Origin: a virus
DNA length: 64,000 nucleotides
Strand: one strand, 5' to 3'
Virus record (IMG/VR): IMGVR_UViG_3300020200_000015
Span: 1-64,000 of that record
Shown: positions 232-58,617 of the stretch, in pieces
How positions within the stretch are numbered: the stretch's first letter is position 1
How the letters are laid out: each line of letters begins with the position of its first letter
Notes under the pieces: generated by a model
What the model saw: only the letters and a program-made list of their open reading frames with translations
Databases searched by the model: none
Told to the model about the DNA's origin: nothing
Translations under genes and position numbers: made by a program

Positions 232-684
232 TCACATATTGTGCCAGTTCTTCGTGTGCTCAAGGAACACATCGCACTGGAACTTATCGACTGAGGCAAC
301 GTAGCCCTCATTCATATCCCATGTGACAGAAGTCGTCGTGTGAAGACCGCCGCGTGCACCCCAATCGACAGTGATGTTCACCCACTTGGGGAACACAACC
401 TTCACAAACTGCTCAGTGATAGCCTGCGTGGCGGCCTCATGGAAGATGCCAACGCCGTAGAACGAACGCAGGTATAGCTTCCACGCCTTTAGTTCGACGC
501 AGTTAGCGTTCGGGATGTAGCGTAGGATGACACGGCCATAATCAGGCAGGCCGGTCTTAGGGCACACTGAGCTGAACTCAGGATCGATAATCTGCACGAG
601 CTTATCTTCATTTGAAGGGTTCGGCACAACATCGAGAGCGTAGAAGGTCGCCTTGTTGAACGGGATCGGAAAGACTGGTTGCAT
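232..684 (-). CDS. queF: preQ0 nitrile reductase QueF (unimodular, type I)
   Basis: EFSSVCPKTGLPD (catalytic Cys/Asp), QueF motif ELKAWKLYL, FHE and ARGG. Confidence 0.93.
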   Translation of the reverse strand: MQPVFPIPFNKATFYALDVVPNPSNEDKLVQIIDPEFSSVCPKTGLPDYGRVILRYIPNANCVELKAWKLYLRSFYGVGIFHEAATQAITEQFVKVVFPKWVNITVDWGARGGLHTTTSVTWDMNEGYVASVDKFQCDVFLEHTKNWHNM

Positions 685-769
685 GGTTGGTTATACCTTG
701 AACTGGTCATACAGCGTGGGTTTCATTGCTTTGCTTCCTTTGCTTTGCGAGTTGATCGTGGTCGAGAAC

Positions 770-797
770 ATAGCGGTAGGGTTGCCCCTACCGCTAT
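770..797 (-). terminator. perfect 12-bp hairpin with GCAA tetraloop just after the DUF932-like gene; probable terminator or stability hairpin
   Basis: Minus strand ATAGCGGTAGGG-GCAA-CCCTACCGCTAT; the U-tail is weak. Confidence 0.6.
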
Positions 798-800
798 ATC

Positions 801-1892
801 TCAGTTCCAGAACTGGTTGCTGAGCGTCGCAGTCTCCAGAATCGCGCCGCCGACAGCTTGCAGCTTGAGCTTGCTGTCATCGGTCAGCTCTTCTGCGTGC
901 GTACCGGCGCGAGTCACCGCATTGGAGAGACGGTACAAGTTGTTGGACTTGATCGTCTCGCCCTCGACACGCCACCCTTCACGGATGTACTTGTCCTCCA
1001 GGCGGGTGACGGCCATGTCGCGTGCCAGCCGAACCATTGCGCTGTCAGGCTCGTTCGTCTCAGGGTTGACCGAGAGTTCGATCTTGTGCGCCCTCTCGAT
1101 CTGCTCGACGACACGATTGCTGTAGCCGTCTATCATCTCGACACCTTGCCGCAGATTTGACATCGCAGCATCGATCTCACGCGACTCCTTGCCGGTGTGG
1201 CTGATGCTGATGATTACACCCTTGCTCATCGTGGTGGCACCGTTGGTGCATATGAGTCGAAGTGTGTAAGGCGACAGGGTGAGACCTGACGTCTGAGCAA
1301 CGTCGCTATCCTGGAAGCGCACGCCCCACTCGATAGGATCCTTGCTCAGAAGACGCTGGTGCTTCTCACTGTCAATGCCCGTCAAGCCTTCGTCCAGGCG
1401 GCGGGTGATGAAGTCGATGACCAGACCATCGCCATCGAATCGCGTGAGCTTGACCTTCTTGTCTGGGCCAAGCTTGCTGATGAGCGCCTCGATGGAGTTT
1501 TCGTAGGGGATGGGGTTCCAGCTTGCCGACATCATAGCACGCATGACACGCTGGCCATCGCGCTGCTCGAAGCGCAGCAGCGCTTCCTTGTCAGGGCTGA
1601 CGCCAACCCAGTGGTTGAAGTTGAGTGCAGCCAAACCAGGGTCACCCTTCTCGCCGGTCACGAGCTTGGCCAGGTATGCACCGGGCAAGCCGTAGACGAC
1701 GTTTGAGGTCTGGCGGTACACACGGTCATCGAAGGAGTAAACATCCTCCTTTGACGAACCGGGACGACGGACGATGATCTTCCCAGGCTGGGCAGGATCC
1801 ATCAAGAGAGACTTGACGGACACCACCTCGTCTGAGAGATTTGCCTTACGGTTCAGAACCTTCTGGCGGATCTGTTCGAGCGTTGTGGACAT
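801..1892 (-). CDS. DUF932/DUF945-like phage protein
   Basis: Family-type motif LRLICTNG, preceded by G.RF..SD; C-terminal LY.L.NAVT. Confidence 0.7.
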   Translation of the reverse strand: MSTTLEQIRQKVLNRKANLSDEVVSVKSLLMDPAQPGKIIVRRPGSSKEDVYSFDDRVYRQTSNVVYGLPGAYLAKLVTGEKGDPGLAALNFNHWVGVSPDKEALLRFEQRDGQRVMRAMMSASWNPIPYENSIEALISKLGPDKKVKLTRFDGDGLVIDFITRRLDEGLTGIDSEKHQRLLSKDPIEWGVRFQDSDVAQTSGLTLSPYTLRLICTNGATTMSKGVIISISHTGKESREIDAAMSNLRQGVEMIDGYSNRVVEQIERAHKIELSVNPETNEPDSAMVRLARDMAVTRLEDKYIREGWRVEGETIKSNNLYRLSNAVTRAGTHAEELTDDSKLKLQAVGGAILETATLSNQFWN

Positions 1893-2050
1893 TGGTTTTC
1901 TCTTTGTAGCAGCAAGATTGCTGCGACTACCTGTACCATACAGCGGCGCATGGCAAAGGCAATAGCCAGCAAAACGAAACTTGCTACATCAGTTACGATT
2001 GATCGATCGATTGAACCACAGATATCTCGATTTCGAGAGATATCGAGCAC

Positions 2051-2575
2051 TCAAATTTTCGTGCTGAACGGGATAGCATTCCTGACGATCTTCATGTGCT
2101 CGTTCTCAGGAGGATCACACAGCCATTGAGGGTTCGTACCGAAGACATTCAACCCGAGCTGAGACATGTGGCTGACGTAGCTCATATCGTTCCAGCCTAG
2201 CCTTTTCATCTTCTCAATCTTCGGCCACTCGAGCATATCAAACTTGCTGCAATCGATCACAGCAAACTCTCCCCTGTAACCAATAGCGTGCTGCCAACCA
2301 TAAGGCTGCCGAAAGATCTTCGTGGCATCACTCAGGTCGGTAAGCACCTTGCAGCCAACATCAATGTAAACTGCACGACCTTTATAACTGCACAACTCTG
2401 GGATCGAGTACTTCAAGCACTCGTAGGGGGTCTTCCAGAGCTTGTTCGTCCAACCACTTCTAGTATTGAACTTCAAGAAGGTCAGTGACAACTTGCCAGA
2501 ACAGTGAGCTTGCAAGTGGCTGATGAATTCATCCTCTTGCCTCTTCTGACCATAGCTACCAATGAAAACTCTCAC
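2051..2575 (-). CDS. GT8-like glycosyltransferase (short, DxD degenerate)
   Basis: RVFIG, W.TP, IPELC.YKGRAVYID pattern of GT8-like proteins; DxD appears as DVG. Confidence 0.55.
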   Translation of the reverse strand: MRVFIGSYGQKRQEDEFISHLQAHCSGKLSLTFLKFNTRSGWTNKLWKTPYECLKYSIPELCSYKGRAVYIDVGCKVLTDLSDATKIFRQPYGWQHAIGYRGEFAVIDCSKFDMLEWPKIEKMKRLGWNDMSYVSHMSQLGLNVFGTNPQWLCDPPENEHMKIVRNAIPFSTKI

Positions 2576-3162
2576 TTCTTGCCCCCATAGACGACTGACA
2601 TGAACTCAGCGCGCACGGCGGGGTCAGACCTGAACTCACCGAGCAGTGCCGATGTCTCCATGGTCGAGTGTGAGTCCTCGACCCCCCTCATATGGGAACA
2701 CATGTGAACCGAATTGTAGACAAGCACGCCAACGCCTTGAGGGTTGAGCGAGTCATTGATTGCATTGGCAATCTGCATAGTCATTCGCTCTTGGATTTGA
2801 AATCTCCGAGAGAAGCAGCGGACCAACCGTGGCAACTTGCTCAGACCAACGACGATCTTAGTCTGTTTATTCGGAATATAACCGATTGCGACTCTGCCGT
2901 GGAACGGAAGCATGTGATGAGCGCACATGCTGAAGTAGTCAATGTCTTTGACTACAATCATCTGGTCGTAGTCTTCTGATGGGAAGCGTGTCTTCAGAAT
3001 CTCTTCGGGATTCTGAGTGTACCCATCAGTCAACTCATAAAACGCCTTCGCAACACGCTTCGGCGTATCGTTGAAGTTAGGATCATTGAGGCTGAATCCT
3101 CTTGAAGAGGAAAGCTCATACAAGATCTGCGATACGTTCCATTGAAGATTGCTGTTTTCCAT
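2572..3162 (-). CDS. folE: GTP cyclohydrolase I
   Basis: DTPKRVAK, SMCAHHMLPFHG, GLSKLPR, QIQERMT and HMC..MRGV; start moved to ATG 3162 next to the queC stop. Confidence 0.97.
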   Translation of the reverse strand: MENSNLQWNVSQILYELSSSRGFSLNDPNFNDTPKRVAKAFYELTDGYTQNPEEILKTRFPSEDYDQMIVVKDIDYFSMCAHHMLPFHGRVAIGYIPNKQTKIVVGLSKLPRLVRCFSRRFQIQERMTMQIANAINDSLNPQGVGVLVYNSVHMCSHMRGVEDSHSTMETSALLGEFRSDPAVRAEFMSVVYGGKK

Positions 3163-3163
3163 G

Positions 3164-4072
3164 TCACTTGATCCACTTTGCGATAGCAGGATCTTCCATA
3201 CCAAGTTCGTTGAAGGCCGTGCGACGCAAGATGCAGCTATCACACTCACCACAACCACCCAGCACGCCGTTGTAGCACGAGTGGGTATCTTCGTACTTGA
3301 CGCCAAGCTCCAAGCCAAGGCGGATGATGTTACGCTTGTTCAGCATCATCAGCGGCGCGTGCACGCCAATCTCGTGCCCGTTGAATACGCCAATAGACAG
3401 AGCATCACGCATTGCGGCAATGAACTCAGGGCGGCAATCAGGGTAGCCGCTGTAGTCAAGAGCATTCACGCCAAGAGCGATGTGCCTGAAGCCAGAGGCA
3501 AAGGCTGACTGCGCAACGGCAGTCATAAAGTACAGGTTGCGACCGGGAACGAATGTTGAAGGGATGCGCTTCGCCATGTCGTCAATCGACTGGTTACGCG
3601 GCACCTTCACTTCATCGCGAGTCAAACTGCTCACTGCAAGCTGATTGATAGGAGTCATATCAACCAATTGATGCGTAACGGGCACATCAAAGCTGTCCCG
3701 GTACGTGTTCAAATAATTGATTGCTCGATCGATCTCGATCTTATGGCGCTGGCCATAATCGAAGATCAAGCAGTGCACACTTCCGAAGAGCTTGCAAGCC
3801 CAGTGAAGAACAGTCGTGCTGTCAAGCCCGCCGCTAAACGACAAGGAGACGCCAGCCTTCTTCAACTTCTCGTAGTACTTGTCGCGTGCGCTACGCTCGA
3901 CAATCATCAAGTTTGCAATGCGATCATCGCGCATATCAGCCAACTTACTTGGCCAGAAATCGCTGAGGTCGCGGTGCATTACCGCAGGGGTCATTATCTT
4001 CTGACCAGTGATCGGACAAATCTGCTTCGGAAGATTTGTGAAAGCTATTTGCTCTAACGCCTTATCATCCAT
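3164..4072 (-). CDS. queC: 7-cyano-7-deazaguanine synthase QueC with ~70-aa N-terminal extension
   Basis: SGGLDS PP-loop, DYGQRH, FVPGRN, SGYPDCR and SCY...CGECDSC..R. Confidence 0.97.
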   Translation of the reverse strand: MDDKALEQIAFTNLPKQICPITGQKIMTPAVMHRDLSDFWPSKLADMRDDRIANLMIVERSARDKYYEKLKKAGVSLSFSGGLDSTTVLHWACKLFGSVHCLIFDYGQRHKIEIDRAINYLNTYRDSFDVPVTHQLVDMTPINQLAVSSLTRDEVKVPRNQSIDDMAKRIPSTFVPGRNLYFMTAVAQSAFASGFRHIALGVNALDYSGYPDCRPEFIAAMRDALSIGVFNGHEIGVHAPLMMLNKRNIIRLGLELGVKYEDTHSCYNGVLGGCGECDSCILRRTAFNELGMEDPAIAKWIK

Positions 4073-4119
4073 AGCTAGGTATACTGGTATTATGCTCTAA
4101 TCATAATAACCGTGGCAAG

Positions 4120-4482
4120 CTAAATGATTGTCGGCCTAAGCCTTATCGTTCCGACAAGTGTGTTGATAGTCTTGCCGCCCAGATTATAAGCCGCCTCTTG
4201 ATAGTAGTTACCAGGCAGCAAGTTCCTGGTATCAACGCCACTGAGAACGACAGTGAAGATACCATTTGCCGGTGTGTCAATTCTGATGCCACTGCCTGGG
4301 TAGCTCTTAGTGAGTACCGGCGTACTGCGATCAGTCGATGCCATCGCCCAGTCGATAGCAGTTACGCTACTGAGATCGATCGCAGACCCGGCGCTGTTTT
4401 GCACAGCAACATCTAATTCACGATACTCACCAGCCTGTATCGTGATCGAAGAGTTTATCTTTCCCACCGCCAAAAGATACAA
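4120..4482 (-). CDS. stand-alone BppU N-terminal-like (Ig-like) domain protein
   Basis: Pattern I.AG.....V.V....G..IDLS / G.F.V.L...DT..L.PG.Y..E. Confidence 0.55.
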   Translation of the reverse strand: MYLLAVGKINSSITIQAGEYRELDVAVQNSAGSAIDLSSVTAIDWAMASTDRSTPVLTKSYPGSGIRIDTPANGIFTVVLSGVDTRNLLPGNYYQEAAYNLGGKTINTLVGTIRLRPTII

Positions 4483-4485
4483 GGG

Positions 4486-5004
4486 TCAAATCATCTCAAG
4501 CAGTTGGAGCGTATTCTTCTCGTTGATGAAGAACGCTTCAATCTGATTGACGATTGGTGCGTAATCGCTGATTTGCTTAATGAAAGATACAGCGTCCTTC
4601 AAAAGCAAGCGAGCTTCGATATTTGCCCTCTTAGCAGCATCACGAAACTTCTCTTGTCTCATTCTCTTCTTCTTGCGATTGACCGAATTGACTCTGGTAG
4701 CCCTAGTCTTATCACAAGGCTTGCAATAGGTGTATGGACGACCGTTGTGTCTCCTGTAGAAGTGCAATTTCGCATCTTTCCACTGATTGCAGATGCGACA
4801 GAGCTTCATACCATCAACTACTGCCGGCTCACGGGACCAAGAGTTTCTCATCTCGATCCCTGATTTGTGAAGATATCTAGCGATTGTTGAATTACTGAGA
4901 TTGAAATGATCTGCTACTGCTGGGATTGTGAGACGCTTATCGCTCAGATAGTATTCAGGAATGAGCTTTGCCAGCTCAGCCCGCCTAGCGCGTGTGTGAG
5001 CCAT
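4486..5004 (-). CDS. HTH plus zinc-finger DNA-binding protein (homing-endonuclease-type binding domains, no clear nuclease domain)
   Basis: HTH TIPAVADHFNLSNSTIARYL; K.CRIC..WK...FY...YCKPC finger; ATG 5004 overlaps the queE stop. Confidence 0.65.
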   Translation of the reverse strand: MAHTRARRAELAKLIPEYYLSDKRLTIPAVADHFNLSNSTIARYLHKSGIEMRNSWSREPAVVDGMKLCRICNQWKDAKLHFYRRHNGRPYTYCKPCDKTRATRVNSVNRKKKRMRQEKFRDAAKRANIEARLLLKDAVSFIKQISDYAPIVNQIEAFFINEKNTLQLLEMI

Positions 5005-5789
5005 TAGGTTCCGGGCCTGTTCCCGTAGGCGAGGACATGGATTTGCGGCGTGATGATTGTACGCTTCCACACCTCGCCCATCTTGCAGCGAAGCTTATAG
5101 CTTTCCAGCAGCCAGTGGAGTGAAGCTGACAAGTTGTTGCGGATAGTAGGTGCATCAAGATGCTGGGTGATTCTGTTCCCAGCCATCGTATCGCTCATAT
5201 TGATCGTGCTGTTGGTCACGATATTGGTATTGAACGGCTGCAAGACCATCGTGCAAGCGCCATTGAGCTGCACGTTGACAGCATGGGCGTAGTCGAGATC
5301 TTCGTTACTTGAGATCAAGCACTTGACTTGATCTTGTGTACGCATGTTTTCGATACCCTTAAAGTATCCCTTCATCTGTTCGCCGGTACAGGGAGTCTTT
5401 GCGTCAGGCGAGTACAGGTCGGACCTCTCATGCACAACCTTGTCGTAGAAACGACCGCTCGTTTCAATGTGAACAAGCAATCCATTAGCATTGAACTGCT
5501 CAATCATAGTGAGTAGCTGTTTGGTGTAGAGCATTGGCTCGCCACCAGTCACGCTCACCCACTTGATACCATACTTCTGGCAGGCATCGAGCGCCCTGCC
5601 GATGACAAGCTCAAGATCAACAATCTGATTCTGGCTGGCATTCCAAGAATACTCGCTGTCGCAGAATGAACAGCGCAACGGGCAGCCGCCAACTCTGATG
5701 AAGTAGTACGGGTGGCCGATGTTGATACCTTCACCCTGCACAGAGACGAACTCTTCAAGAACTGGCAGCTTGTTGGACGGCAGACCCAT
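5004..5789 (-). CDS. queE: 7-carboxy-7-deazaguanine synthase QueE (radical SAM)
   Basis: SVQGEG, FIR.GGCPLRCSFCDS (CxxxCxxC), TGGEP, IETSG and PQIH. Confidence 0.96.
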   Translation of the reverse strand: MGLPSNKLPVLEEFVSVQGEGINIGHPYYFIRVGGCPLRCSFCDSEYSWNASQNQIVDLELVIGRALDACQKYGIKWVSVTGGEPMLYTKQLLTMIEQFNANGLLVHIETSGRFYDKVVHERSDLYSPDAKTPCTGEQMKGYFKGIENMRTQDQVKCLISSNEDLDYAHAVNVQLNGACTMVLQPFNTNIVTNSTINMSDTMAGNRITQHLDAPTIRNNLSASLHWLLESYKLRCKMGEVWKRTIITPQIHVLAYGNRPGT

Positions 5790-5840
5790 GGATGCTACTA
5801 CGTGTAGTAGTCAAAACTCATACTACACTCAAGCATCTAG

Positions 5841-6608
5841 CTAAAGTGCGCTACGCCACTTGTCAGGTATCTGCTCGTTCGGCATACCGATTGAATTGAA
5901 TTGATTGTTAATGGCCGATTCTACGTTCCGGACATCATACCTTCCGTCAGTGTGGCGACGATTCAGCCAACGACGACGAAGTAATTCTCTGCACGAATAG
6001 TGCATGTGAATGAGACGCACATCTTCACGCTCAGTTGGAACAACTTCTCTAACCCAATTGTTAGTCCACTTAGTAGTGTGCCACCCAGCCCCCCATCCAG
6101 GATCACAACTGGTGATCGCTACCTTGCAGTAATGCTGCCAGTTACGATGCCAAGTCATTCTCTGAGTTAACCACGGCCTCTTCGAAGTATCCAGAGGAAC
6201 GGTGCCAACATCAACGACATCGTAGCCAGAACACTGCACAAACTCTCCATCAAATCGATCGATGAATTCGCGCAAGCCGCCAGAGTAAATTTCAGGGTCT
6301 GCAACGATGAACTCATCTGCATCAGCCCGCAATACGTATTTATATCCTGATGCAAGTAATTGCTTGATGATTCTCATCGTATGGCCGCTGATGTGGCCGT
6401 CATCAACCTGACCGCGCATTTCGCCCTCAGGCGTTTTACTGTTAATCACTTCAACATTACATTTGAATCCTTCAAATAAATTGCCATCTGATCCATCATC
6501 GAGCATCCAGATATCTTTCTGGTCGAAGTGATCAGAATAATAGTCATACCACATGCGGGTGAAGTCAACTTCATTGTAGAAGCACCCGACAGCAGCACAC
6601 TTGCCCAT
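5841..6608 (-). CDS. glycosyltransferase, GT-A fold (Glyco_tranf_2_4-like)
   Basis: YNE, LDDGS, ADADEFI (DxD), K.AI, GWH and LIH.HY. Confidence 0.85.
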   Translation of the reverse strand: MGKCAAVGCFYNEVDFTRMWYDYYSDHFDQKDIWMLDDGSDGNLFEGFKCNVEVINSKTPEGEMRGQVDDGHISGHTMRIIKQLLASGYKYVLRADADEFIVADPEIYSGGLREFIDRFDGEFVQCSGYDVVDVGTVPLDTSKRPWLTQRMTWHRNWQHYCKVAITSCDPGWGAGWHTTKWTNNWVREVVPTEREDVRLIHMHYSCRELLRRRWLNRRHTDGRYDVRNVESAINNQFNSIGMPNEQIPDKWRSAL

Positions 6609-6643
6609 GCTGCTTGATACAACTAATTCACAAACGCTTACTA

Positions 6644-7075
6644 TTACTTCTCAGTGAAGACTGCGTAGCAGTTTGGCGTTTCCCACACCAGTACAGAATT
6701 CACTTTGACGCCATCCATCGCAAGAAGCTCTTTGGCCTTATAGTAGAGCAGCTCAGCGATATTCTCAGCAGTAGGGTTCTTGTCCATGATGAAGTGCCTA
6801 TGCCCACTCATAGAACCAGCACGCCACTCATAGGCAATCGGATCATCCCTGAAGATCAACATGCCATGGTCAAGGTTGTCATCAATCCACTTGCCGAAAA
6901 CGCCTTTGATGACTGAGAAATCAACCACCCTACCGAGCTTGTCGAGGCTGCCAGTGCATTCAACCTCGACAACATATCGATGCCCGTGGATGTGGTTGCA
7001 CTTTGATTCGTGCTGATAGACGCGGTGGCCAGCGTCGAATTCAATCTTACGGGTGATCGTGTATGTGGCAGTCAC
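6644..7075 (-). CDS. queD: 6-carboxytetrahydropterin synthase QueD
   Basis: FDAGHR, C.HIHGHRY, DF..IK, LDH, PTAEN and WETP. Confidence 0.97.
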   Translation of the reverse strand: MTATYTITRKIEFDAGHRVYQHESKCNHIHGHRYVVEVECTGSLDKLGRVVDFSVIKGVFGKWIDDNLDHGMLIFRDDPIAYEWRAGSMSGHRHFIMDKNPTAENIAELLYYKAKELLAMDGVKVNSVLVWETPNCYAVFTEK

Positions 7076-7353
7076 TTACCAAGCTCCAAGTTGGTGGGGT
7101 CGATTTCACTGGTTACGCCAAGTACCCAACGCAGAACTGCGTAAATGCAAGCCTCATATGACTGCTTGTCAACAAGACTCTCAAGCTGCTCGTTCATCGT
7201 CTTGAGACGAGCAGGCTTGATATCCGGCGCTAGGCCAGCGTTAGCTAGCCCGATGTTCTGAACAAGCTGCTTGATCTTCTCAGCACGCCTCTGCAAAGCT
7301 GAAGAAGAGATAGCAGCCTGATGAAAGATCTCTTGCTCTGTTCTAATCTTCAT
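7072..7353 (-). CDS. hypothetical protein
   Basis: Overlaps both neighbours in an operon-like way; ends ..LRWVLG. Confidence 0.6.
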   Translation of the reverse strand: MKIRTEQEIFHQAAISSSALQRRAEKIKQLVQNIGLANAGLAPDIKPARLKTMNEQLESLVDKQSYEACIYAVLRWVLGVTSEIDPTNLELGK

Positions 7354-7900
7354 AATTCTCTGAATCCTTCACCCAAATACCAAGGCCGGCACCGCCCTGA
7401 TCAACTTCGATCTTCTTGCCTGGCAATTCATTGAAGAACTTACGCACTGACGGGAAAGAGTTGATGTCGTGGAACATGATGACACCACCCGACAGCACAA
7501 CAGGTGACCAAGCATCGAAGTCCCTCTTCACACCATCGTAGCTATGGTCGCCATCGATGTGAAGAATGTCAATGTCGAGGTAGTTCTCAGGTTGACGCCA
7601 CATCGCAAGAACCTGAACGCTATCACCTTGAATCAACTTAGCGTTCGGGAATGATGCGATGTTGCTCAACACATGGCTCTTAGCTTGCTGAGCAGTACCA
7701 TACTCAACATAGGCGTCGATTCCGAATACACTCGCCTTCGGAAAATCACGCGCCATAGTGAAGAAGCTATAGCCGTAGTCAACTCCGATCTCAACGATGC
7801 AGCGCACATCATCAAGATCTTTGATGACAGTCGAAAGAGCCTGCTTGTACTCATTAGCAGCACTCGTCCAAGCACTAGGGCAGTCGAAAGCGTTCATCAA
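7343..7900 (-). CDS. class I SAM-dependent methyltransferase (Methyltransf_24-like)
   Basis: VEIGVDYGYS, GID, LHIDGDHSY.GV..D and GG.I.FHD. Confidence 0.92.
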   Translation of the reverse strand: MMNAFDCPSAWTSAANEYKQALSTVIKDLDDVRCIVEIGVDYGYSFFTMARDFPKASVFGIDAYVEYGTAQQAKSHVLSNIASFPNAKLIQGDSVQVLAMWRQPENYLDIDILHIDGDHSYDGVKRDFDAWSPVVLSGGVIMFHDINSFPSVRKFFNELPGKKIEVDQGGAGLGIWVKDSENYED

Positions 7901-8742
7901 ATCACACTCGCTGGTAGACGGTTCTTGAACTTCTTGTACATGACTTCGTGTGCGCGGCGATGGATACTGAGGTCAGTTGTACCCATTGCCTCAGCCCACT
8001 TCTCTCGCGTGCTCGTTACGCCGCCATGGTGTACGCAGTCGATGTCGAGTACGTAGTTCTTGTAGCCGCCAAAGTGCGAGTCAAGGCAGATATCGTTGTC
8101 GTAGTTGTGGTGCGGTGGGTAGCTCTCGTAATCGAACTTGCCCTTAAGAGCGTTGTCGATCATGTGCCTTGACACTACGAGTGTAAATCCGTCAAGTGTC
8201 ACAACGCGCTCGTATCTACCGCTCACAACACGACCACCAGCACCGGCCATACTCGGCACGGTGAAACAATTCCACCTCATGAGCTGCGTGAAGTGATATG
8301 GGGCGCGATAGATGTCTGGAGTACCAAGCCCTTTCGCTCCGAACATGCCACAGACACCTGGCGGCTTGCCGTTGATAAGCTCAAGCTCTGCTAGCAAATT
8401 CTCAATCGCCACATCCCATCCGTACATCTTCATCTCGACATCATTGTGCGAGTAGAAGATGTAGTCTGTCTTCACATACTCGAGAGCTTGCTGGAACGTT
8501 CTGTAAACGCCAGTGTTTGACTGATTACGAACACAGTCAACGTCGTACTCCTTCTTCCAATCCTTGTAGAACTGCTGCTCAACCAACGGAACGGTACTGC
8601 CGTTGTCGATAAAGAGGATCTTGAACGAACTCTTCGCGTGGTCGAACCAAGACTGGACGTACTTAGCCGTGGCTTCATGCTGATTCAGGATCGGGATTAC
8701 GACCGTAAAACACATGTACGTCACCCTTTCTAATCTGCTCAA
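7897..8742 (-). CDS. glycosyltransferase family 2
   Basis: VVIPILNQ, IDNGS, N.GV, HND, Y.NDI and HHGG. Confidence 0.88.
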   Translation of the reverse strand: MSRLERVTYMCFTVVIPILNQHEATAKYVQSWFDHAKSSFKILFIDNGSTVPLVEQQFYKDWKKEYDVDCVRNQSNTGVYRTFQQALEYVKTDYIFYSHNDVEMKMYGWDVAIENLLAELELINGKPPGVCGMFGAKGLGTPDIYRAPYHFTQLMRWNCFTVPSMAGAGGRVVSGRYERVVTLDGFTLVVSRHMIDNALKGKFDYESYPPHHNYDNDICLDSHFGGYKNYVLDIDCVHHGGVTSTREKWAEAMGTTDLSIHRRAHEVMYKKFKNRLPASVI

Positions 8743-8775
8743 TCAGTCGCAATACATACTGAAAGAACTCAGGTC

Positions 8776-9726
8776 TCAGACGAGTTCCTCGAAGAGTTCT
8801 AACATCTGGGTAGCTCTCGCCACCGTAGAGTGATACTTTTGAGCGTGTCTTATCGCAGCTCCAGTTAGTCTTTTCCACCATCCCTCGTTTTTGACAATCT
8901 CAACTAGCAGCGCTTCCATGTGCTGCCAGTTATGGAAATACAATGCGTGCCTGTGCGGCTCTGGCATGAACCTCATGTGCAGAACCTTGCTTATGTCAGG
9001 CGTACAAACAGCAGCTCCAAAACCGATAGCTTCCCAATACCTAAGCGTGTCAATGCCAGCGCCGGGCACGCTAACAATGCACTTCGATCGCCTCATGAGC
9101 GATCTGTAATCGGGAATCGAAAGAGGCTGACCATCGTTGGGTGCGTTGGCAACAATGTTCAATCCAGTCCTCTTAGCGATTGCATTGAGGTGATCAACGC
9201 ACTCTTGTCGCAGCTTGCTACTGCCTCCATAGGCTACGAAGGAAACATCAACATCTCTCTTCTCATACGGCTGCGGCTGGTGATCGAAATGAAACTGGTA
9301 AACGCCAAACTGAAAGCTTCTGACGTTGTGCCAAACTAAGTCGTTCACTTCAGGGTACCTCAGCTCACGCTTCAGGTACAGCTTGAACATTGATGGATCG
9401 ACTAGATAGCAGTTGCTATCATGGCCATCAAGAAAGATACCCTTCTTGTGCAGCAGCTCTCTCCTACCTTCGAAGTAATCGAAGTTCTCTAAGAACTTCA
9501 TATCACCTCCAGACGACAGTAAGATGACATCAGCCTCAGGGATGACATCCTCAATAGCCGTCTTACTCAACAGATCAAGTTTTTCAATCTGAGAGCCATG
9601 ATGCACAATGGCATTTGTGCACCAGAATTCTTTGATTGCGCAAGTCTTCCTGAGAAGCCAGAGTCCCTCAGTAATCTGATTAGAAGAGTAGTCAAATCCC
9701 TCTGGGGCGAGATAGAGAATTTTCAT
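8776..9726 (-). CDS. glycosyltransferase, GT-B (Glyco_trans_1_2/exostosin-like)
   Basis: RDVDVSFV, Y..LMRRSK, PGAG.DT.RYWEA..G and HST..RA. Confidence 0.8.
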   Translation of the reverse strand: MKILYLAPEGFDYSSNQITEGLWLLRKTCAIKEFWCTNAIVHHGSQIEKLDLLSKTAIEDVIPEADVILLSSGGDMKFLENFDYFEGRRELLHKKGIFLDGHDSNCYLVDPSMFKLYLKRELRYPEVNDLVWHNVRSFQFGVYQFHFDHQPQPYEKRDVDVSFVAYGGSSKLRQECVDHLNAIAKRTGLNIVANAPNDGQPLSIPDYRSLMRRSKCIVSVPGAGIDTLRYWEAIGFGAAVCTPDISKVLHMRFMPEPHRHALYFHNWQHMEALLVEIVKNEGWWKRLTGAAIRHAQKYHSTVARATQMLELFEELV

Positions 9727-10664
9727 TCCATCTTAACAGTTTCAACGGTCAGATTGTCAAGGAAGTTGATGGTTTCAGCAGTGATCAAACCATCACTGAT
9801 TGCAAGGTCGTTAACCTGCTTGACGGTAGGATGCTTGACACTCGGGTTCTTAGCAATCCAGTTGGCGTAGCGAGCATCGGCACCCTCTTGGGCAACCGTG
9901 CGCGTCAAGTTATTCCTCATGAACTTGATTCTATTCTCCCTGAACTTAACGTGGGTCACAAGCTCAGGATTCTCATACCGTGTGCGACTTGCAATGTGGC
10001 TGTACGGTGCAAGGTTAGTGCTGAACGCCTTATAGCCAGTCAGAAGAATACGCCAGTGAGTGTCGTTGTCCTCAAAGAACGCAGGCTGGTAATCCTCGCA
10101 GATGTAGCCGATTTTCTCAATGAAAGACGGCTCAATCATGTAGCATGAGAAGTCTGGGTTCTCTCTTTTTGATGACTCTGGCCTGATAATCGCAAGGTCA
10201 GATGGGTTCCTAGTCATGTTGGCAGCAGTGACCATCACAGTTTCAGGCACCTCTGCCTTGATAGTTTTAAAGCCTTCGATCATCCCATCAATGGTGTATT
10301 GTCCGAAGGCAATGTCATTGTTGCAGATCAGGATCTTGGTGTAGCCATTCTCAACACCGTACTTGATGATCTGGTTCCAACCCACGGCTACACCGGCATT
10401 ACAGCCGTTGAACGCCATGTAGAACCCATCGATATTTGGATTGTTCTTATTCCACTTCTCAATCTGCTCGACATTCTCAGGCTTTGAGCCGTTATCAATG
10501 TAGAGGAAGGTCACATGCCGTGCCTTTGTCTTGACTGACTCGATGCAGCGGCGCGTGTACGTAAGGCAGTTCACGCCAAGCGTACCGATGAGCACTCGCT
10601 CATCGATATCACGAACTACCTTGTGATCAACCTTAACAGCAGTCAAGCCGCGATGAATAACCAT
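9723..10664 (-). CDS. glycosyltransferase family 2
   Basis: IDNGS, N.GVA.GWNQ, CNNDI, IG..CE.Y, FFEDND and H..S.T. Confidence 0.9.
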   Translation of the reverse strand: MVIHRGLTAVKVDHKVVRDIDERVLIGTLGVNCLTYTRRCIESVKTKARHVTFLYIDNGSKPENVEQIEKWNKNNPNIDGFYMAFNGCNAGVAVGWNQIIKYGVENGYTKILICNNDIAFGQYTIDGMIEGFKTIKAEVPETVMVTAANMTRNPSDLAIIRPESSKRENPDFSCYMIEPSFIEKIGYICEDYQPAFFEDNDTHWRILLTGYKAFSTNLAPYSHIASRTRYENPELVTHVKFRENRIKFMRNNLTRTVAQEGADARYANWIAKNPSVKHPTVKQVNDLAISDGLITAETINFLDNLTVETVKME

Positions 10665-10683: not shown

Positions 10684-11316
10684 TCACATATCGTCATATG
10701 ATAAAAATGCTGATTGGTCGATCAACTTACCATTCACATTACGTCGCCCGAATCTCGATATCTCAATCGCATCAAGCATCTCGTACCTAACCAACTTATA
10801 GGCTAGAGTTGCAAAGGAGCACCCGACATCCTTATCAAAAGTCATCACAGCGCGCCATAACCCAATCAGCCCTGCTGAGTATAAATCATCGACCCCCATG
10901 CCGGCGCGGCGTGCACGCCATCCGCCAACCGATTTGATGCCAGCCTTGACTAGCTTTATATGGCCATCGAATAATTTCTTCTGCGCTGCATTCATATTCG
11001 GTCGCCGCTTTGGCAGGCGACCTACCTTGATCTCTATATTATTCTTCCTCAGTATTCTTGAGACCCTCCGTTGGCTGACTCCTAGCTTTCTAGAAACTGC
11101 GCCTGCGCTAGATAGCTTCTTGTACCAGCTAAGAACTCTTCTCTCTATCTGGCTATCAGTTATTACCTTTGGCTTTTTGCGGATGCCAAGGAGGTGAAGC
11201 ACGTAGGCTACAGTAGTGCCTCTAATCTTGAGATGTTTAGCTACTGCAATTATGCGCTTCAGTCTCCTGAACCAGTAGACTATCCTACGCATTAACACGG
11301 AATCAACTTTCATCAC
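10684..11316 (-). CDS. sigma-70 region-2 protein with N-terminal HTH motifs
   Basis: DDLYSAGLIGLWRAV..FD...G.SFAT.A...VR.EM (region 2); HTH-like segments lie N-terminal. Confidence 0.75.
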   Translation of the reverse strand: MMKVDSVLMRRIVYWFRRLKRIIAVAKHLKIRGTTVAYVLHLLGIRKKPKVITDSQIERRVLSWYKKLSSAGAVSRKLGVSQRRVSRILRKNNIEIKVGRLPKRRPNMNAAQKKLFDGHIKLVKAGIKSVGGWRARRAGMGVDDLYSAGLIGLWRAVMTFDKDVGCSFATLAYKLVRYEMLDAIEISRFGRRNVNGKLIDQSAFLSYDDM

Positions 11317-12192: not shown

Positions 12193-12609
12193 TCAGACGG
12201 GCCAAACGTATTCCAAGGTGCTAGGCTCAGACCAACCGAACTTACCATACCAGATCGGATCCTTGCGAATCAGGTTGGAACGATGGCTGGCATGGACATC
12301 ATCTCTACCAATCCACGGAGGAAGAGTAACCGTGCTAGGGAGGTCATAAAGCTTCATGGTATTGTTGAATCCACGGCTGACCCATTCATTGATGGAAAGG
12401 TTGTGGTAGAGCTTGAGAGCATCAAGGTATCCACGCCACATGGTACGGGCAGGATGATTAGCCCACCCGATCTTGGCATTAGGATCTACCTCAAGCTTCA
12501 GGGTGCTATTAACAAGCTGCATGGCTTCTAGACGTTGCTTGCCAAGACGCTTGTTGTCCAAAACCTTGAGGGATTCGTAAAAGGACGGATAGGGCAGAAA
12601 GGTTTGCAT
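12193..12609 (-). CDS. pyrimidine-dimer DNA glycosylase/DenV-like protein (MSMEG_6728 family)
   Basis: MQTFLPY, LD.KRLGKQRLE, GW.NHPA..MWRGY, RG..NT and HASHRSNL.RKDP..Y. Confidence 0.9.
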   Translation of the reverse strand: MQTFLPYPSFYESLKVLDNKRLGKQRLEAMQLVNSTLKLEVDPNAKIGWANHPARTMWRGYLDALKLYHNLSINEWVSRGFNNTMKLYDLPSTVTLPPWIGRDDVHASHRSNLIRKDPIWYGKFGWSEPSTLEYVWPV

Positions 12610-56097: not shown

Positions 56098-57480
56098 TCA
56101 GCCTCTCTTGTTGAGTGCTTCGAGAATCAGGTCTTTAAACTGGATGGCGACTACATCCCAAGTCGGGGCGTAATCGTTCGCCGCTGCATCTTTCCTCATC
56201 TGTGCCGCATACTCTTTGTCAACAAACACCTTGTTGATCTTATCAGCAGCATCACCAATATCAGCGTTCGCCCACTCGTTCTCCCAAGTGACGAACATGT
56301 CGTAGTCGCGGACGGCAACCGTGGAGCCGCCACCCTTAGAAACAAGTTCAGGCATCGAGCTGTAGTCGGTGACGAGAGTCGGCACGCCGCACGACAGCGT
56401 TTCTACAATCGGCAGTCCAAAGCCTTCGCTGTGCGACAAGAAGCAGTGGACATCGAAGCAGTTCATGATCTGAGCGAGCGCTGCGCGAGGCAAACCGTGC
56501 AGAGCCTTGTAACCAGGCGTGATGGCAACGCGACCGTTCAGATCGAGACGATAGAAGATCTCATCGATTCTCCAGCCAATGCCGGGTCTATCGTGCACAT
56601 CGGCACCATCGCCGCGTGTCGTGTGCAGATAGATGATTGACTTCTCAGTCTCTTCGCGCTGCTGGAACGCCGGGCACACATCGCAGCGGAAGCACTGCTT
56701 ATCGCGGCAGAACTCATTTGCCGTCATCGTTTGCGCGATTTCACCCGTCTTGGGGTCGCTAATGTTGACCTCTTGGCGTTCGACCCAAGTCTTGCAGTTG
56801 AACGCCTTGAAAGCCTTTGCAACACGGGGAATGCCCTTACGGACCTGATTTCGACCAACGAAGCCGACGATGAACTTATCGGCAAACTCCTTGCCGAGAG
56901 TCATGCCTTTACGCTTAGTCATCAGCTCATCGTGATCAGTATTCTCATTTGTGCCTTCCGGATACCATGGGCGGAAGGTCACCTTGTCAACACCATGCAA
57001 AATCAGTCGCGGCGCACGGAACGGCACTTGCTGTTCGACAATTTCTTGACCGAACTTGCTGAAGGTCACAAGGCAGTCCGGCTTGCGCAATGATGATTGC
57101 CACGGGATTGAGATAACGTCACGGTCAATCGGCACGTAAGCAAGCCACATGAAGCTATCACGCGCCCTGCAAACAGCCACATGGTCAGTCATCCACGGGT
57201 CGCCAAGCGTCAGAACCACCTTTGGCTTGACATTGTCAATGATAGCATTGAAGCTATTCTTGCCGAACTGGTCCTCGCCAGTCCAAAACTGCGTTGTGTG
57301 CAGATGAATGCCCATCGAGCGGGCTTGCTCAAGGTGATTTGGGTTGGCGTGCCACCCAAGATAGTGCACCTCGAAAGTGTCCATCGAAGCGAGCCTAGCG
57401 CAAAGCTCACGACCGACAGTACCAAAGCCGGTGTCACCCCAATCGGACATGAACAGAATCTTGATTTTGTTATGAGTCAT
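56098..57480 (-). CDS. glycosyltransferase family 4 (GT-B) with a Cys-rich insertion
   Basis: TGFG.V, HGVD...F, VGRNQ.RK, D...L.S.SEGFGLP.VE...CGVP and SMPE. Confidence 0.93.
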   Translation of the reverse strand: MTHNKIKILFMSDWGDTGFGTVGRELCARLASMDTFEVHYLGWHANPNHLEQARSMGIHLHTTQFWTGEDQFGKNSFNAIIDNVKPKVVLTLGDPWMTDHVAVCRARDSFMWLAYVPIDRDVISIPWQSSLRKPDCLVTFSKFGQEIVEQQVPFRAPRLILHGVDKVTFRPWYPEGTNENTDHDELMTKRKGMTLGKEFADKFIVGFVGRNQVRKGIPRVAKAFKAFNCKTWVERQEVNISDPKTGEIAQTMTANEFCRDKQCFRCDVCPAFQQREETEKSIIYLHTTRGDGADVHDRPGIGWRIDEIFYRLDLNGRVAITPGYKALHGLPRAALAQIMNCFDVHCFLSHSEGFGLPIVETLSCGVPTLVTDYSSMPELVSKGGGSTVAVRDYDMFVTWENEWANADIGDAADKINKVFVDKEYAAQMRKDAAANDYAPTWDVVAIQFKDLILEALNKRG

Positions 57481-57615: not shown

Positions 57616-58617
57616 TCAGAAATCGCTCACCGACACAACGGTCGTCGGGATGCTCGACAAGCCCCTGATCACAGCAGCCTCACCGACGAGGACGCCACGA
57701 CGGAACTTGCCAACCATCACCTCCGCATCATGCAGCAGATCCTGGAAGTTACCCAGGCTCAGCGGCAAGCGGTTCGTGCTGATGAGGCGCTTCTTGGACT
57801 CGATCATGTAGGCCGTGCCAGACGGGATGTACTCCGTCACGATCAGCCTCATGCGGCCAGTCACCTCGTTGCGCGCAGCGCTACCGACACCAAAGTCGCC
57901 CGGCGTGGTCATGGCCAGCTTGGCGAGAGGCTCACACTCCGGCGGGACCAGCAGGACGTCAGGACGGTGACGGTTGCGGCGCATGGTCGTTGAAGCTTCA
58001 TTCAACGTGTTGATCATCTTCGCCACGTTTGACGTACCCGTGCCGCTGAAGCTAGTCGTGCCACTGAGGCCAGAGCTGACCGACGCCAAGATAGCGCCAT
58101 AGTGAATGGCGGCCATCTTGTCATTCGCAGCCGAACGGAAGTCCTCCGTCACCATCTCGATCAGGCCCATCTGGCCATCGGTGAACCACTCGTTCGAGTA
58201 GCCGATAGCAGCGCCGTACTTGACGTGACGAACGTACTTCTCAGCCGACGTGACTCGGTTGAACTTGATCTCGCCGTTCTCACCAACCTCGGTGAACATG
58301 ATGCCGTAAGCACCAGCCGAGGCCGCATCCTCAGCGGCGTTGAACGTAGCCGGCTCGTTAGCGCCTGAAAGCTGCGTCACCACCTGTGAGGGGCGGAAGG
58401 GGAACAGTTCACCATGACCACGGCCAGGGATCACGCGGAAGATGTCCTGCCAACCGATGTCGGCAGAGTTATCGTTCTGCATGAAGAACTCATTGACCGC
58501 AGTCGTGAAGAACTGCTTGGTGTCGGAAGTCGCGATGATTTCCTGCACCTGACCATCTTCCTCAATGACCATCTGGCCATTGCGGAAGTTGACATTATCC
58601 TTGAAAAGCTTGCCCAT
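57616..58617 (-). CDS. major capsid protein (HK97 fold)
   Basis: EVGE.GEI, KYG.AI, PD.LLVPP; follows protease and decoration genes; strongly biased codons; followed by a terminator. Confidence 0.88.
   Translation of the reverse strand: MGKLFKDNVNFRNGQMVIEEDGQVQEIIATSDTKQFFTTAVNEFFMQNDNSADIGWQDIFRVIPGRGHGELFPFRPSQVVTQLSGANEPATFNAAEDAASAGAYGIMFTEVGENGEIKFNRVTSAEKYVRHVKYGAAIGYSNEWFTDGQMGLIEMVTEDFRSAANDKMAAIHYGAILASVSSGLSGTTSFSGTGTSNVAKMINTLNEASTTMRRNRHRPDVLLVPPECEPLAKLAMTTPGDFGVGSAARNEVTGRMRLIVTEYIPSGTAYMIESKKRLISTNRLPLSLGNFQDLLHDAEVMVGKFRRGVLVGEAAVIRGLSSIPTTVVSVSDF

Follow-up and report, generated by a model that had tools for sequence, protein, structure and literature searches.

Does a phage whose preQ1 genes are interleaved with those of glycosyltransferases and a methyltransferase place sugars on a 7-deazaguanine base of its DNA? 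The question is raised by a gene block at one end of IMG/VR record IMGVR_UViG_3300020200_000015, a viral contig of 82,960 bases (CheckV completeness 74%); bases 1-64000 of the record make up the whole stretch under analysis, which we call the window. A first interpretation of the letters alone (the sequence-only reading) had seen in this block a possible new hypermodified 7-deazaguanine DNA base. The explanation that we favour, at somewhat better than even confidence, is that two systems share one packed, co-oriented block: a DNA-modification system for the methylated base mdPreQ1, and a glycan cassette whose acceptor we infer to lie elsewhere than in DNA.

A preQ1 pathway and a DpdM-like protein

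The que gene set of the block is complete and intact (Table 1). FolE, QueD, QueE and QueC scored far over the Pfam cut-offs and matched PHROG Que families, and QueF, a unimodular preQ0 reductase, has the cysteine of a CPxTGxPD motif and an ELKAWKLY motif, both seen by eye. The complete preQ1 pathway described in the sequence-only reading was therefore borne out by Pfam, PHROGs and NCBIfam, as was its interleaved order of que, glycosyltransferase and methyltransferase genes, all on the minus strand. The overlaps of stop and start codons that it had pointed to are also real (GT2a/GT-B, GT2b/methyltransferase, methyltransferase/p93, p93/QueD and FolE/p174, where p93 and p174 are proteins of 93 and 174 residues). 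The likely start of FolE is Met53, at about position 3162. QueC has an N-terminal extension of ~70 residues (3865-4072, residues 1-70) that falls outside the Pfam QueC model and is well conserved in a relative of the window phage, L003. This relative (a Joint Genome Institute metagenome contig of 104 kb), a second one, G001 (an IMG/VR record of 99 kb; loci L012 and L095), and the window phage together make up a new lineage of lake phages with genomes of about 100-110 kb.

A candidate for the next enzyme of the pathway lies outside the span that the sequence-only reading had covered. This 328-residue protein (p328) is a candidate dPreQ1 N-methyltransferase by homology to DpdM, the validated dPreQ1 N-methyltransferase of the DUF3109/YkgJ family (Cui et al., PMC10516641). 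First, p328 shows the Cys motifs of the YkgJ/DUF3109 superfamily. Second, a p328 family profile of 50 sequences from an exhaustive HMMER search matched the DpdM of Cellulophaga phage phiSM (CEPG_00054) in hhalign at a probability of 98.8% with an E value of 6e-17 over 165 columns, and the Cys motifs of the two were aligned. Third, 28 of its 30 neighbours in the ESM Atlas belong to PF03692. Finally, p328 is conserved in L003 and in locus L012 of G001, where it stands directly upstream of GT2a. Pfam hmmscan gave no match to p328, and a profile of three sequences reached a probability of only 1.7%.

With this protein included, the que part of the block is best read, from its gene content, as an mdPreQ1 DNA-modification system of the phiSM/VH7D type, which is known in phiSM and in Vibrio phages VH7D, phi-Grn1 and phi-ST2 (Cui, Hutinet et al., NAR 2023, PMC10516641). 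Like that system, it combines the full preQ1 pathway, a unimodular QueF and a DpdM homologue. It differs from it in several respects: the Que proteins share no more than 30-44% identity with their counterparts in cultured phages, the DpdM-like protein has 328 residues versus 217, QueC has its extra N-terminal segment, and dpdA is not on the window contig. The phiSM que cluster, moreover, is without glycosyltransferases, class I methyltransferase, DUF932 gene and HNH gene, all of which are interleaved in the window block. The que part corresponds to the known mdPreQ1 gene set, and the class I methyltransferase of the block is not needed to explain a methylated base. In the pathway we propose, FolE, QueD, QueE and QueC would make preQ0 and QueF would convert it to preQ1; a transglycosylase of the DpdA1 family would exchange guanine in DNA for preQ1 after replication, and the DpdM-like protein would methylate the aminomethyl group to give mdPreQ1. 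The predicted base is thus a known modification. Our confidence in DNA modification for this lineage is high, and on this best-supported reading the phiSM-type modification extends to an uncultured lineage of freshwater phages.

The step for which the record holds no gene is the exchange of the base. Searches with phrog_887 (DpdA1), phrog_20335 (DpdA3, the phiST family), PF20314 (DpdA4) and PF01702 detected no DpdA in the 82,960 bases, and none of the open frames of the record was hit by phmmer with three DpdA sequences as queries. PF01702 is not a valid DpdA detector here, since it missed three DpdA genes that phrog_887 detects. The block, however, stops at the contig end, 232 bp after queF, and both relatives have a DpdA1 gene downstream of that point. 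In G001, a 357-residue phrog_887 protein (E 1.5e-45) is encoded 1.8 kb after queF; in L003, the final 117 bases, ~3.5 kb after queF, match the N-terminus of the G001 DpdA at 64% identity. The DpdA proteins of phages yong3 (Hafnia) and Sonali (Arthrobacter) are of the same phrog_887 family. According to Cui et al. 2023 (PMC10516641), a DpdA is encoded by every phage that has genes for deazaguanine synthesis. Because both relatives carry DpdA after queF, the contig ends at this place and the published rule holds for such phages, the dpdA of the window phage probably lies just beyond the contig end. A DNA 7-deazaguanine system, as proposed in the sequence-only reading, is supported by the DpdA1 genes of the relatives and by the DpdM homologue conserved beside the block.

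Other proteins of the region were considered as DpdA and rejected. The DUF932 protein is a true member of that family, with homologues in phages HTVC112P and Roos, which have no que genes. Proteins of 375, 268 and 328 residues had no match to tRNA-guanine transglycosylase in PDB, Pfam or PHROGs, and the last of them proved to be the DpdM-like protein.

Directly beyond queF, the contig breaks off within a gene of which the N-terminal 78 codons are present; no longer relative of this fragment was found, and it has no match in L003 or G001. Logan contigs placed on the contig end gave branching and no extension. In Logan contigs from four lake runs, depth was ~6-10 at the queF segment 231-758, ~37-55 at 1-228 and ~50-82 at 729-763, and the contigs continued in alternative ways at 213-260 and 729-765; the genome has only one copy of each flank of queF. 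It appears that co-occurring relatives have these flanks in common and differ around queF itself.

Glycosyltransferases, a methyltransferase and their neighbourhoods

The sequence-only reading had counted five glycosyltransferases and a methyltransferase in the block. The methyltransferase and four of the glycosyltransferases stood (GT2a, GT-B, GT2b and GT-A; Table 1). The fifth, labelled GT8-like (p174), did not: besides lacking family matches, it showed no DxD motif on inspection by eye and is missing from L003. GT2a has 114 relatives, most of them carrying PF00535, and is related to gp015 of Synechococcus phage S-CBS4. Among proteins of solved structure, 2qgi and 3bcv come closest to GT2b. 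The class I methyltransferase is probably, by family membership, a sugar O-methyltransferase; at 32% identity it resembles the C-terminal domain of a fusion of a family 2 glycosyltransferase and a methyltransferase in Synechococcus phage S-SRM01. A GT4-type glycosyltransferase stands far from the block, directly downstream of the capsid gene; its homologues include S-CBS4 gp014 (E 3e-12) and the GT4 found in the cassettes of other phages, where it is the usual partner of GT2a and GT2b. The four glycosyltransferases of the block come after the replication/repair genes and lie outside the head or tail module.

GT-A and GT-B are of more restricted occurrence. GT-A, encoded between queD and queE, has an invariant DADE motif and only 6 relatives in 5.8 billion proteins, all from this lineage where the context is known. 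Its structural model is poor (mean pLDDT 54); the confident N-terminal half matches GT-A folds at Z 7-8.8 and fits many of them equally, TarP among them. GT-B has no match in cultured phages, and among 80 loci with a GT2a relative (described below) it occurs in L012 only. No cultured phage was hit in tblastn searches with GT-A, GT-B and GT2b, and scans of IMG/VR with QueF, GT-B, an alignment of GT-A, the GT2b pair and the QueC pair returned nothing. A scan of genome contigs gave one unrelated family 2 glycosyltransferase, in an Omnitrophota metagenome-assembled genome, and the window glycosyltransferases have no relative in the que regions of phages phiST, Sonali, yong3 and GR7B. Profile searches of PDB with the glycosyltransferases gave generic GT2 matches or none, and no sequence match to T4 beta-glucosyltransferase or JGT.

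L003 and G001 keep the gene order of the window at 36-69% amino-acid identity, the common order being p375, p328, GT2a, GT-B, GT2b, methyltransferase, p93, QueD ... QueE, QueC, FolE, DUF932, QueF. GT-A stands between queD and queE in the window and in L003 and is absent from G001. Further transferases are found in the relatives. Both carry a Methyltransf_23 gene; in L003 it stands between GT-A and queE, in G001 a short way upstream of queD. A second Methyltransf_24 gene also occurs in the relatives, and G001 has a second O-methyltransferase-like gene as well as a PF00535 family 2 glycosyltransferase whose gene overlaps the end of queF and shortly precedes dpdA. This lineage, and within it the que-dpdA block, is the only place where GT-A, GT-B and the relatives' extra family 2 glycosyltransferase and methyltransferases occur.

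In L003 the GT-A gene has an in-frame TAG (10442-10444) at a glutamine codon (CAG) that is invariant in the other family members. TAG is a normal stop in the L003 locus, and this one looks like a nonsense mutation or a sequencing error, not recoding. A family of 258-280 residues without a Pfam or PHROG match occurs as two paralogous copies in G001 (L012 12858-13679 and 15511-16353) and as one in L003 (9218-9994), always within the glycosyltransferase/que block; the window has none.

Do the sugar genes track the que genes in other phages? We surveyed the neighbourhoods of the best 80 of the 406 IMG/VR loci that make up the GT2a clade and counted que and dpdA genes within 10 kb. At least one partner (GT2b-like, GT4, or dehydratase/epimerase) accompanied GT2a at 58 loci: a GT2b-like gene at 28/80, a GT4 like S-CBS4 gp014 at 25/80 and a nucleoside diphosphate (NDP)-sugar dehydratase at 34/80, the last type reading as an NDP-sugar 4,6-dehydratase or epimerase. 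By contrast, que or dpdA genes were present at three of the 80, namely G001 and the mutually related L015 and L022; in the latter two, the cassette lies between terminase and portal genes and the que-dpdA genes lie upstream of terminase. Of the 50 largest records bearing a GT2a relative, QueC was found in 4; among the 16 with a completeness of 90% or more it was found in none. Both the methyltransferase and p328 recur, among the 80 loci, in the lineage member only. The PF05065 capsid search was too insensitive for measuring the distance from cassette to capsid.

Cultured phages give a matching picture: the only relatives there belong to cyanophages without QueC or transglycosylase. In S-CBS4, which lacks both, the trio gp014-gp016 (GT4, family 2 glycosyltransferase and S-adenosylmethionine-dependent methyltransferase) lies between the portal and protease/capsid genes. 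The window resembles this trio in that GT2a corresponds to gp015 and the distant GT4 to gp014, and in having a methyltransferase beside glycosyltransferases. Unlike the S-CBS4 cassette, the window set is split, with GT4 by the capsid gene and GT2a, GT2b and the methyltransferase 46 kb away in the que block; unlike other putative glycan cassettes of phage head modules, it has no dehydratase and has two added glycosyltransferases found only in the lineage. Cassettes of the S-CBS4 type are comparable in layout to the virion-glycosylation operons of mycobacteriophages.

The common GT2a/GT2b/GT4 cassette is thus a que-independent glycan module that stands among packaging and head genes where its context could be read, and in this lineage it is split, with most of it in the que block. 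The GT2a/GT2b clade does not track que genes, and GT2a, GT2b and the methyltransferase, which the sequence-only reading had considered as deazaguanine-tailoring enzymes, have homologues that are independent of que genes and sit in head modules, which by that reading's own terms tells against such a role. Because the cassette is common and que-independent, glycosyltransferases next to que genes are not in themselves evidence for a sugar-bearing base.

Two further observations concern these cassettes. The S-SRM01 fusion (gp347, L009 5056-6591), in which a family 2 glycosyltransferase is joined to a Methyltransf_24-like domain, mirrors the overlapping GT2b/methyltransferase pair of the window; it adjoins an epimerase and a sulfotransferase. 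The recurrent form of the cassette (L012-L091) consists of an NDP-sugar dehydratase-like gene, a GT2b-like and a GT2a-like family 2 glycosyltransferase, and a GT4.

Competing accounts of the shared block

If two systems share the block, GT2a, GT-B and GT2b, the sugar O-methyltransferase and the capsid-side GT4 would together build a glycan, most likely one attached to virion proteins; another acceptor, also not DNA, is less likely. Several observations weigh against this account. The homology of p328 to DpdM is at the level of a superfamily that includes protein lysine methylases, and the record itself yielded no DpdA. The sugar genes stand outside the head module in the window phage and are translationally coupled to queD, with the methyltransferase gene, p93 and queD overlapping codon to codon in all three members, and each member has its extra transferases at different points within the que-dpdA block. 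GT-A and GT-B have no relatives outside the lineage, so their acceptor is not inferable from context elsewhere. The position of related cassettes in head modules, finally, hints at virion glycosylation and is no proof of it.

Some of the same observations can be read in favour of a single pathway, in which the embedded transferases add sugar to the deazaguanine in DNA after DpdA has inserted preQ1 or DpdM has methylated it. The lineage-specific GT-A or GT-B, or the extra family 2 enzyme of G001, would prime the chain, which GT2a, GT2b and the O-methyltransferase would then lengthen and cap; a glycan cassette would have been recruited into a que-dpdA-dpdM block to give a (methylated) sugar chain on a preQ1-derived DNA base. 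We consider this unlikely. The interleaving by overlapping codons has been kept in three members at the divergence given above, variable genes of tailoring type have been inserted at several points of the que-dpdA block, and the small GT-A family is known from this lineage alone where its context could be read. The block also follows replication/repair genes and not structural genes, and there is no terminator between the sugar genes and the que genes (a promoter and terminator scan of the block gave nothing above chance). There is precedent in 5-hydroxymethylcytosine for several glycosyltransferases acting in series on a DNA base (bioRxiv 10.1101/2023.12.21.572611). In the 5mYOX/ThyS clusters of that study, as here, several enzymes of GT-A and GT-B fold accompany the genes for base modification, at times together with other enzymes that modify sugars.

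Against a sugar on the base stands, above all, the distribution of its parts: the GT2a and GT2b clades and the relatives of the methyltransferase are overwhelmingly without que or dpdA, in head modules. A gene order shared by the members of one lineage is to be expected for any function. The lineage can do without GT-A, whose gene is interrupted by an in-frame TAG in L003 and missing from G001. The chemistry is also unfavourable, as preQ1 offers only an amine, secondary after the action of DpdM, which is an unusual acceptor for Leloir transferases. Unlike the hydroxymethyl-pyrimidine systems (T4 alpha/beta-glucosyltransferase, 5mYOX/ThyS), the base pathway of the window makes a purine, and neither a ThyS or 5mYOX-like partner nor a sequence resembling T4 beta-glucosyltransferase was found: among ~60 open reading frames scanned across the record with Pfam or PHROGs, several of them without any match, none belonged to a ThyS, 5mYOX/TET or dCMP/dUMP hydroxymethylase family. 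A literature search found no paper describing glycosylated deazaguanine in DNA. If real, a sugar-bearing base of this kind would be a new class of DNA base and the first case of a genome with a glycosylated purine analogue, and the three members of the lineage, with transferases at differing points of the que-dpdA block, make a compact test case.

Less probable still is an account in which the que genes modify DNA and the glycan cassette acts on the host envelope, in a conversion of lipopolysaccharide or capsule. It would fit the nearest solved or named relatives of GT2b, which are family 2 enzymes of polysaccharide and teichoic-acid type, and the NDP-sugar dehydratase found in the cassette elsewhere, which is typical of the synthesis of deoxy-sugar glycans. 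No membrane-spanning glycosyltransferase, flippase or polymerase was found in the block, however, and a virion target agrees better with the place of the cassette in the head module of other phages. Since the scanned part of the genome shows no integrase, there is no sign of lysogenic conversion.

Glycosides of preQ0 (N-linked, with methylated sugars) exist in actinomycetes. The last account, that the phage has no DpdA and its que genes supply preQ1 for host tRNA queuosine or for a glycosylated deazapurine like huimycin or dapiramicin, draws on those compounds, on the lack of any DpdA subfamily in the record and on the variation of co-occurring strains around queF, and is very improbable given dpdA right after queF in both relatives, a contig end so close to queF, a conserved homologue of DpdM, which acts on dPreQ1 in DNA, and published surveys that report DpdA in every que-carrying phage.

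Other genes of the block and the genome

With two systems in a shared block as our preferred account, the remaining genes can be placed around them (Table 1). The p93 gene couples the methyltransferase gene to queD through its overlapping codons. The gene labelled HTH in the sequence-only reading does encode a helix-turn-helix; in full, its product is a helix-turn-helix plus HNH/endonuclease VII-like protein, and the gene is probably a homing-type insert. The label BppU-like, given to a 120-residue protein, found no support: the sole match is to phrog_1084, and the gene is missing from L003. The DUF932 gene sits between folE and queF in all three members of the lineage, and DUF932 genes elsewhere occur without que genes.

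Table 1. Features of the window discussed in the text, ordered by position.
Feature	Coordinates	Strand	Evidence and remarks
N-terminal 78 codons of gene running off contig end	2-235	-	directly after queF
QueF, unimodular preQ0 reductase (to preQ1)	232-684	-	PF14489 86 bits; TIGR03139 111 bits vs cut-off 86.9
DUF932-family protein, 363 aa	801-1892	-	phrog_1362; Pfam weak; ESM Atlas 0.97, 27/30 matches DUF932
p174, 174-aa protein ('GT8-like' in the sequence-only reading)	2051-2575	-	no Pfam, PHROG or NCBIfam match
FolE, GTP cyclohydrolase I	2572-3318	-	PF01227 202 bits
QueC	3164-4072	-	PF06508 218 bits, residues 79-290
120-aa protein ('BppU-like' in the sequence-only reading)	4120-4482	-	phrog_1084 only, function unknown
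Helix-turn-helix + HNH/EndoVII-like nuclease	4486-5070	-	HTH_23; phrog_1035, 8446, 2255
QueE, radical SAM 7-carboxy-7-deazaguanine synthase	5004-5789	-	phrog_2076 E 3e-34; Fer4_12, Radical_SAM
GT-A fold glycosyltransferase, between queD and queE	5841-6608	-	PF13704 27.3 vs cut-off 27.5
QueD, 6-carboxytetrahydropterin synthase	6644-7075	-	PF01242 112 bits; phrog_2389
p93, 93-aa conserved hypothetical	7072-7353	-	43% identity in L003, 34% in L012
Class I SAM methyltransferase	7343-7900	-	Methyltransf_24 68 bits; CmcI/rhamnosyl O-methyltransferase and O-methyltransferase families
GT2b, family 2 glycosyltransferase	7897-8742	-	PF00535 38 bits
GT-B fold glycosyltransferase	8776-9726	-	PF13524 34 bits
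GT2a, family 2 glycosyltransferase	9723-10664	-	phrog_29879 E 5e-14; PF00535 22.2 bits, just below cut-off 23.3
Phage sigma factor	10684-11316	-	Sigma70_r2
DenV-like pyrimidine-dimer glycosylase	12193-12609	-	
p328, DpdM-like protein, 328 aa	12729-13715	-	YkgJ/CxxCxxCC/DUF3109 superfamily
GT4-type (GT-B) glycosyltransferase	56098-57480	-	PDB group 1 glycosyltransferases, e.g. 2jjm, 3mbo
Capsid gene	57616-58617	-	

The window phage has no close relative in culture: the block gave no megablast match to cultured phages, and the polymerase is at most 33% identical to that of any cultured phage. Window DNA is present in many lake-water metagenomes. All genes of the window are on the minus strand and, read in that direction, run from small early genes through terminase, head and tail genes to a replication/repair module (helicases, primase, a split DnaE polymerase, clamp, a UvsX-like recombinase, SbcCD and RuvC), then to the block and the contig end. 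Between that module and the block lie a sigma-like gene, the 328-residue gene, the DenV-like glycosylase gene and a sigma factor gene; the last two, which separate the DpdM-like gene from GT2a, are not at that place in the relatives.

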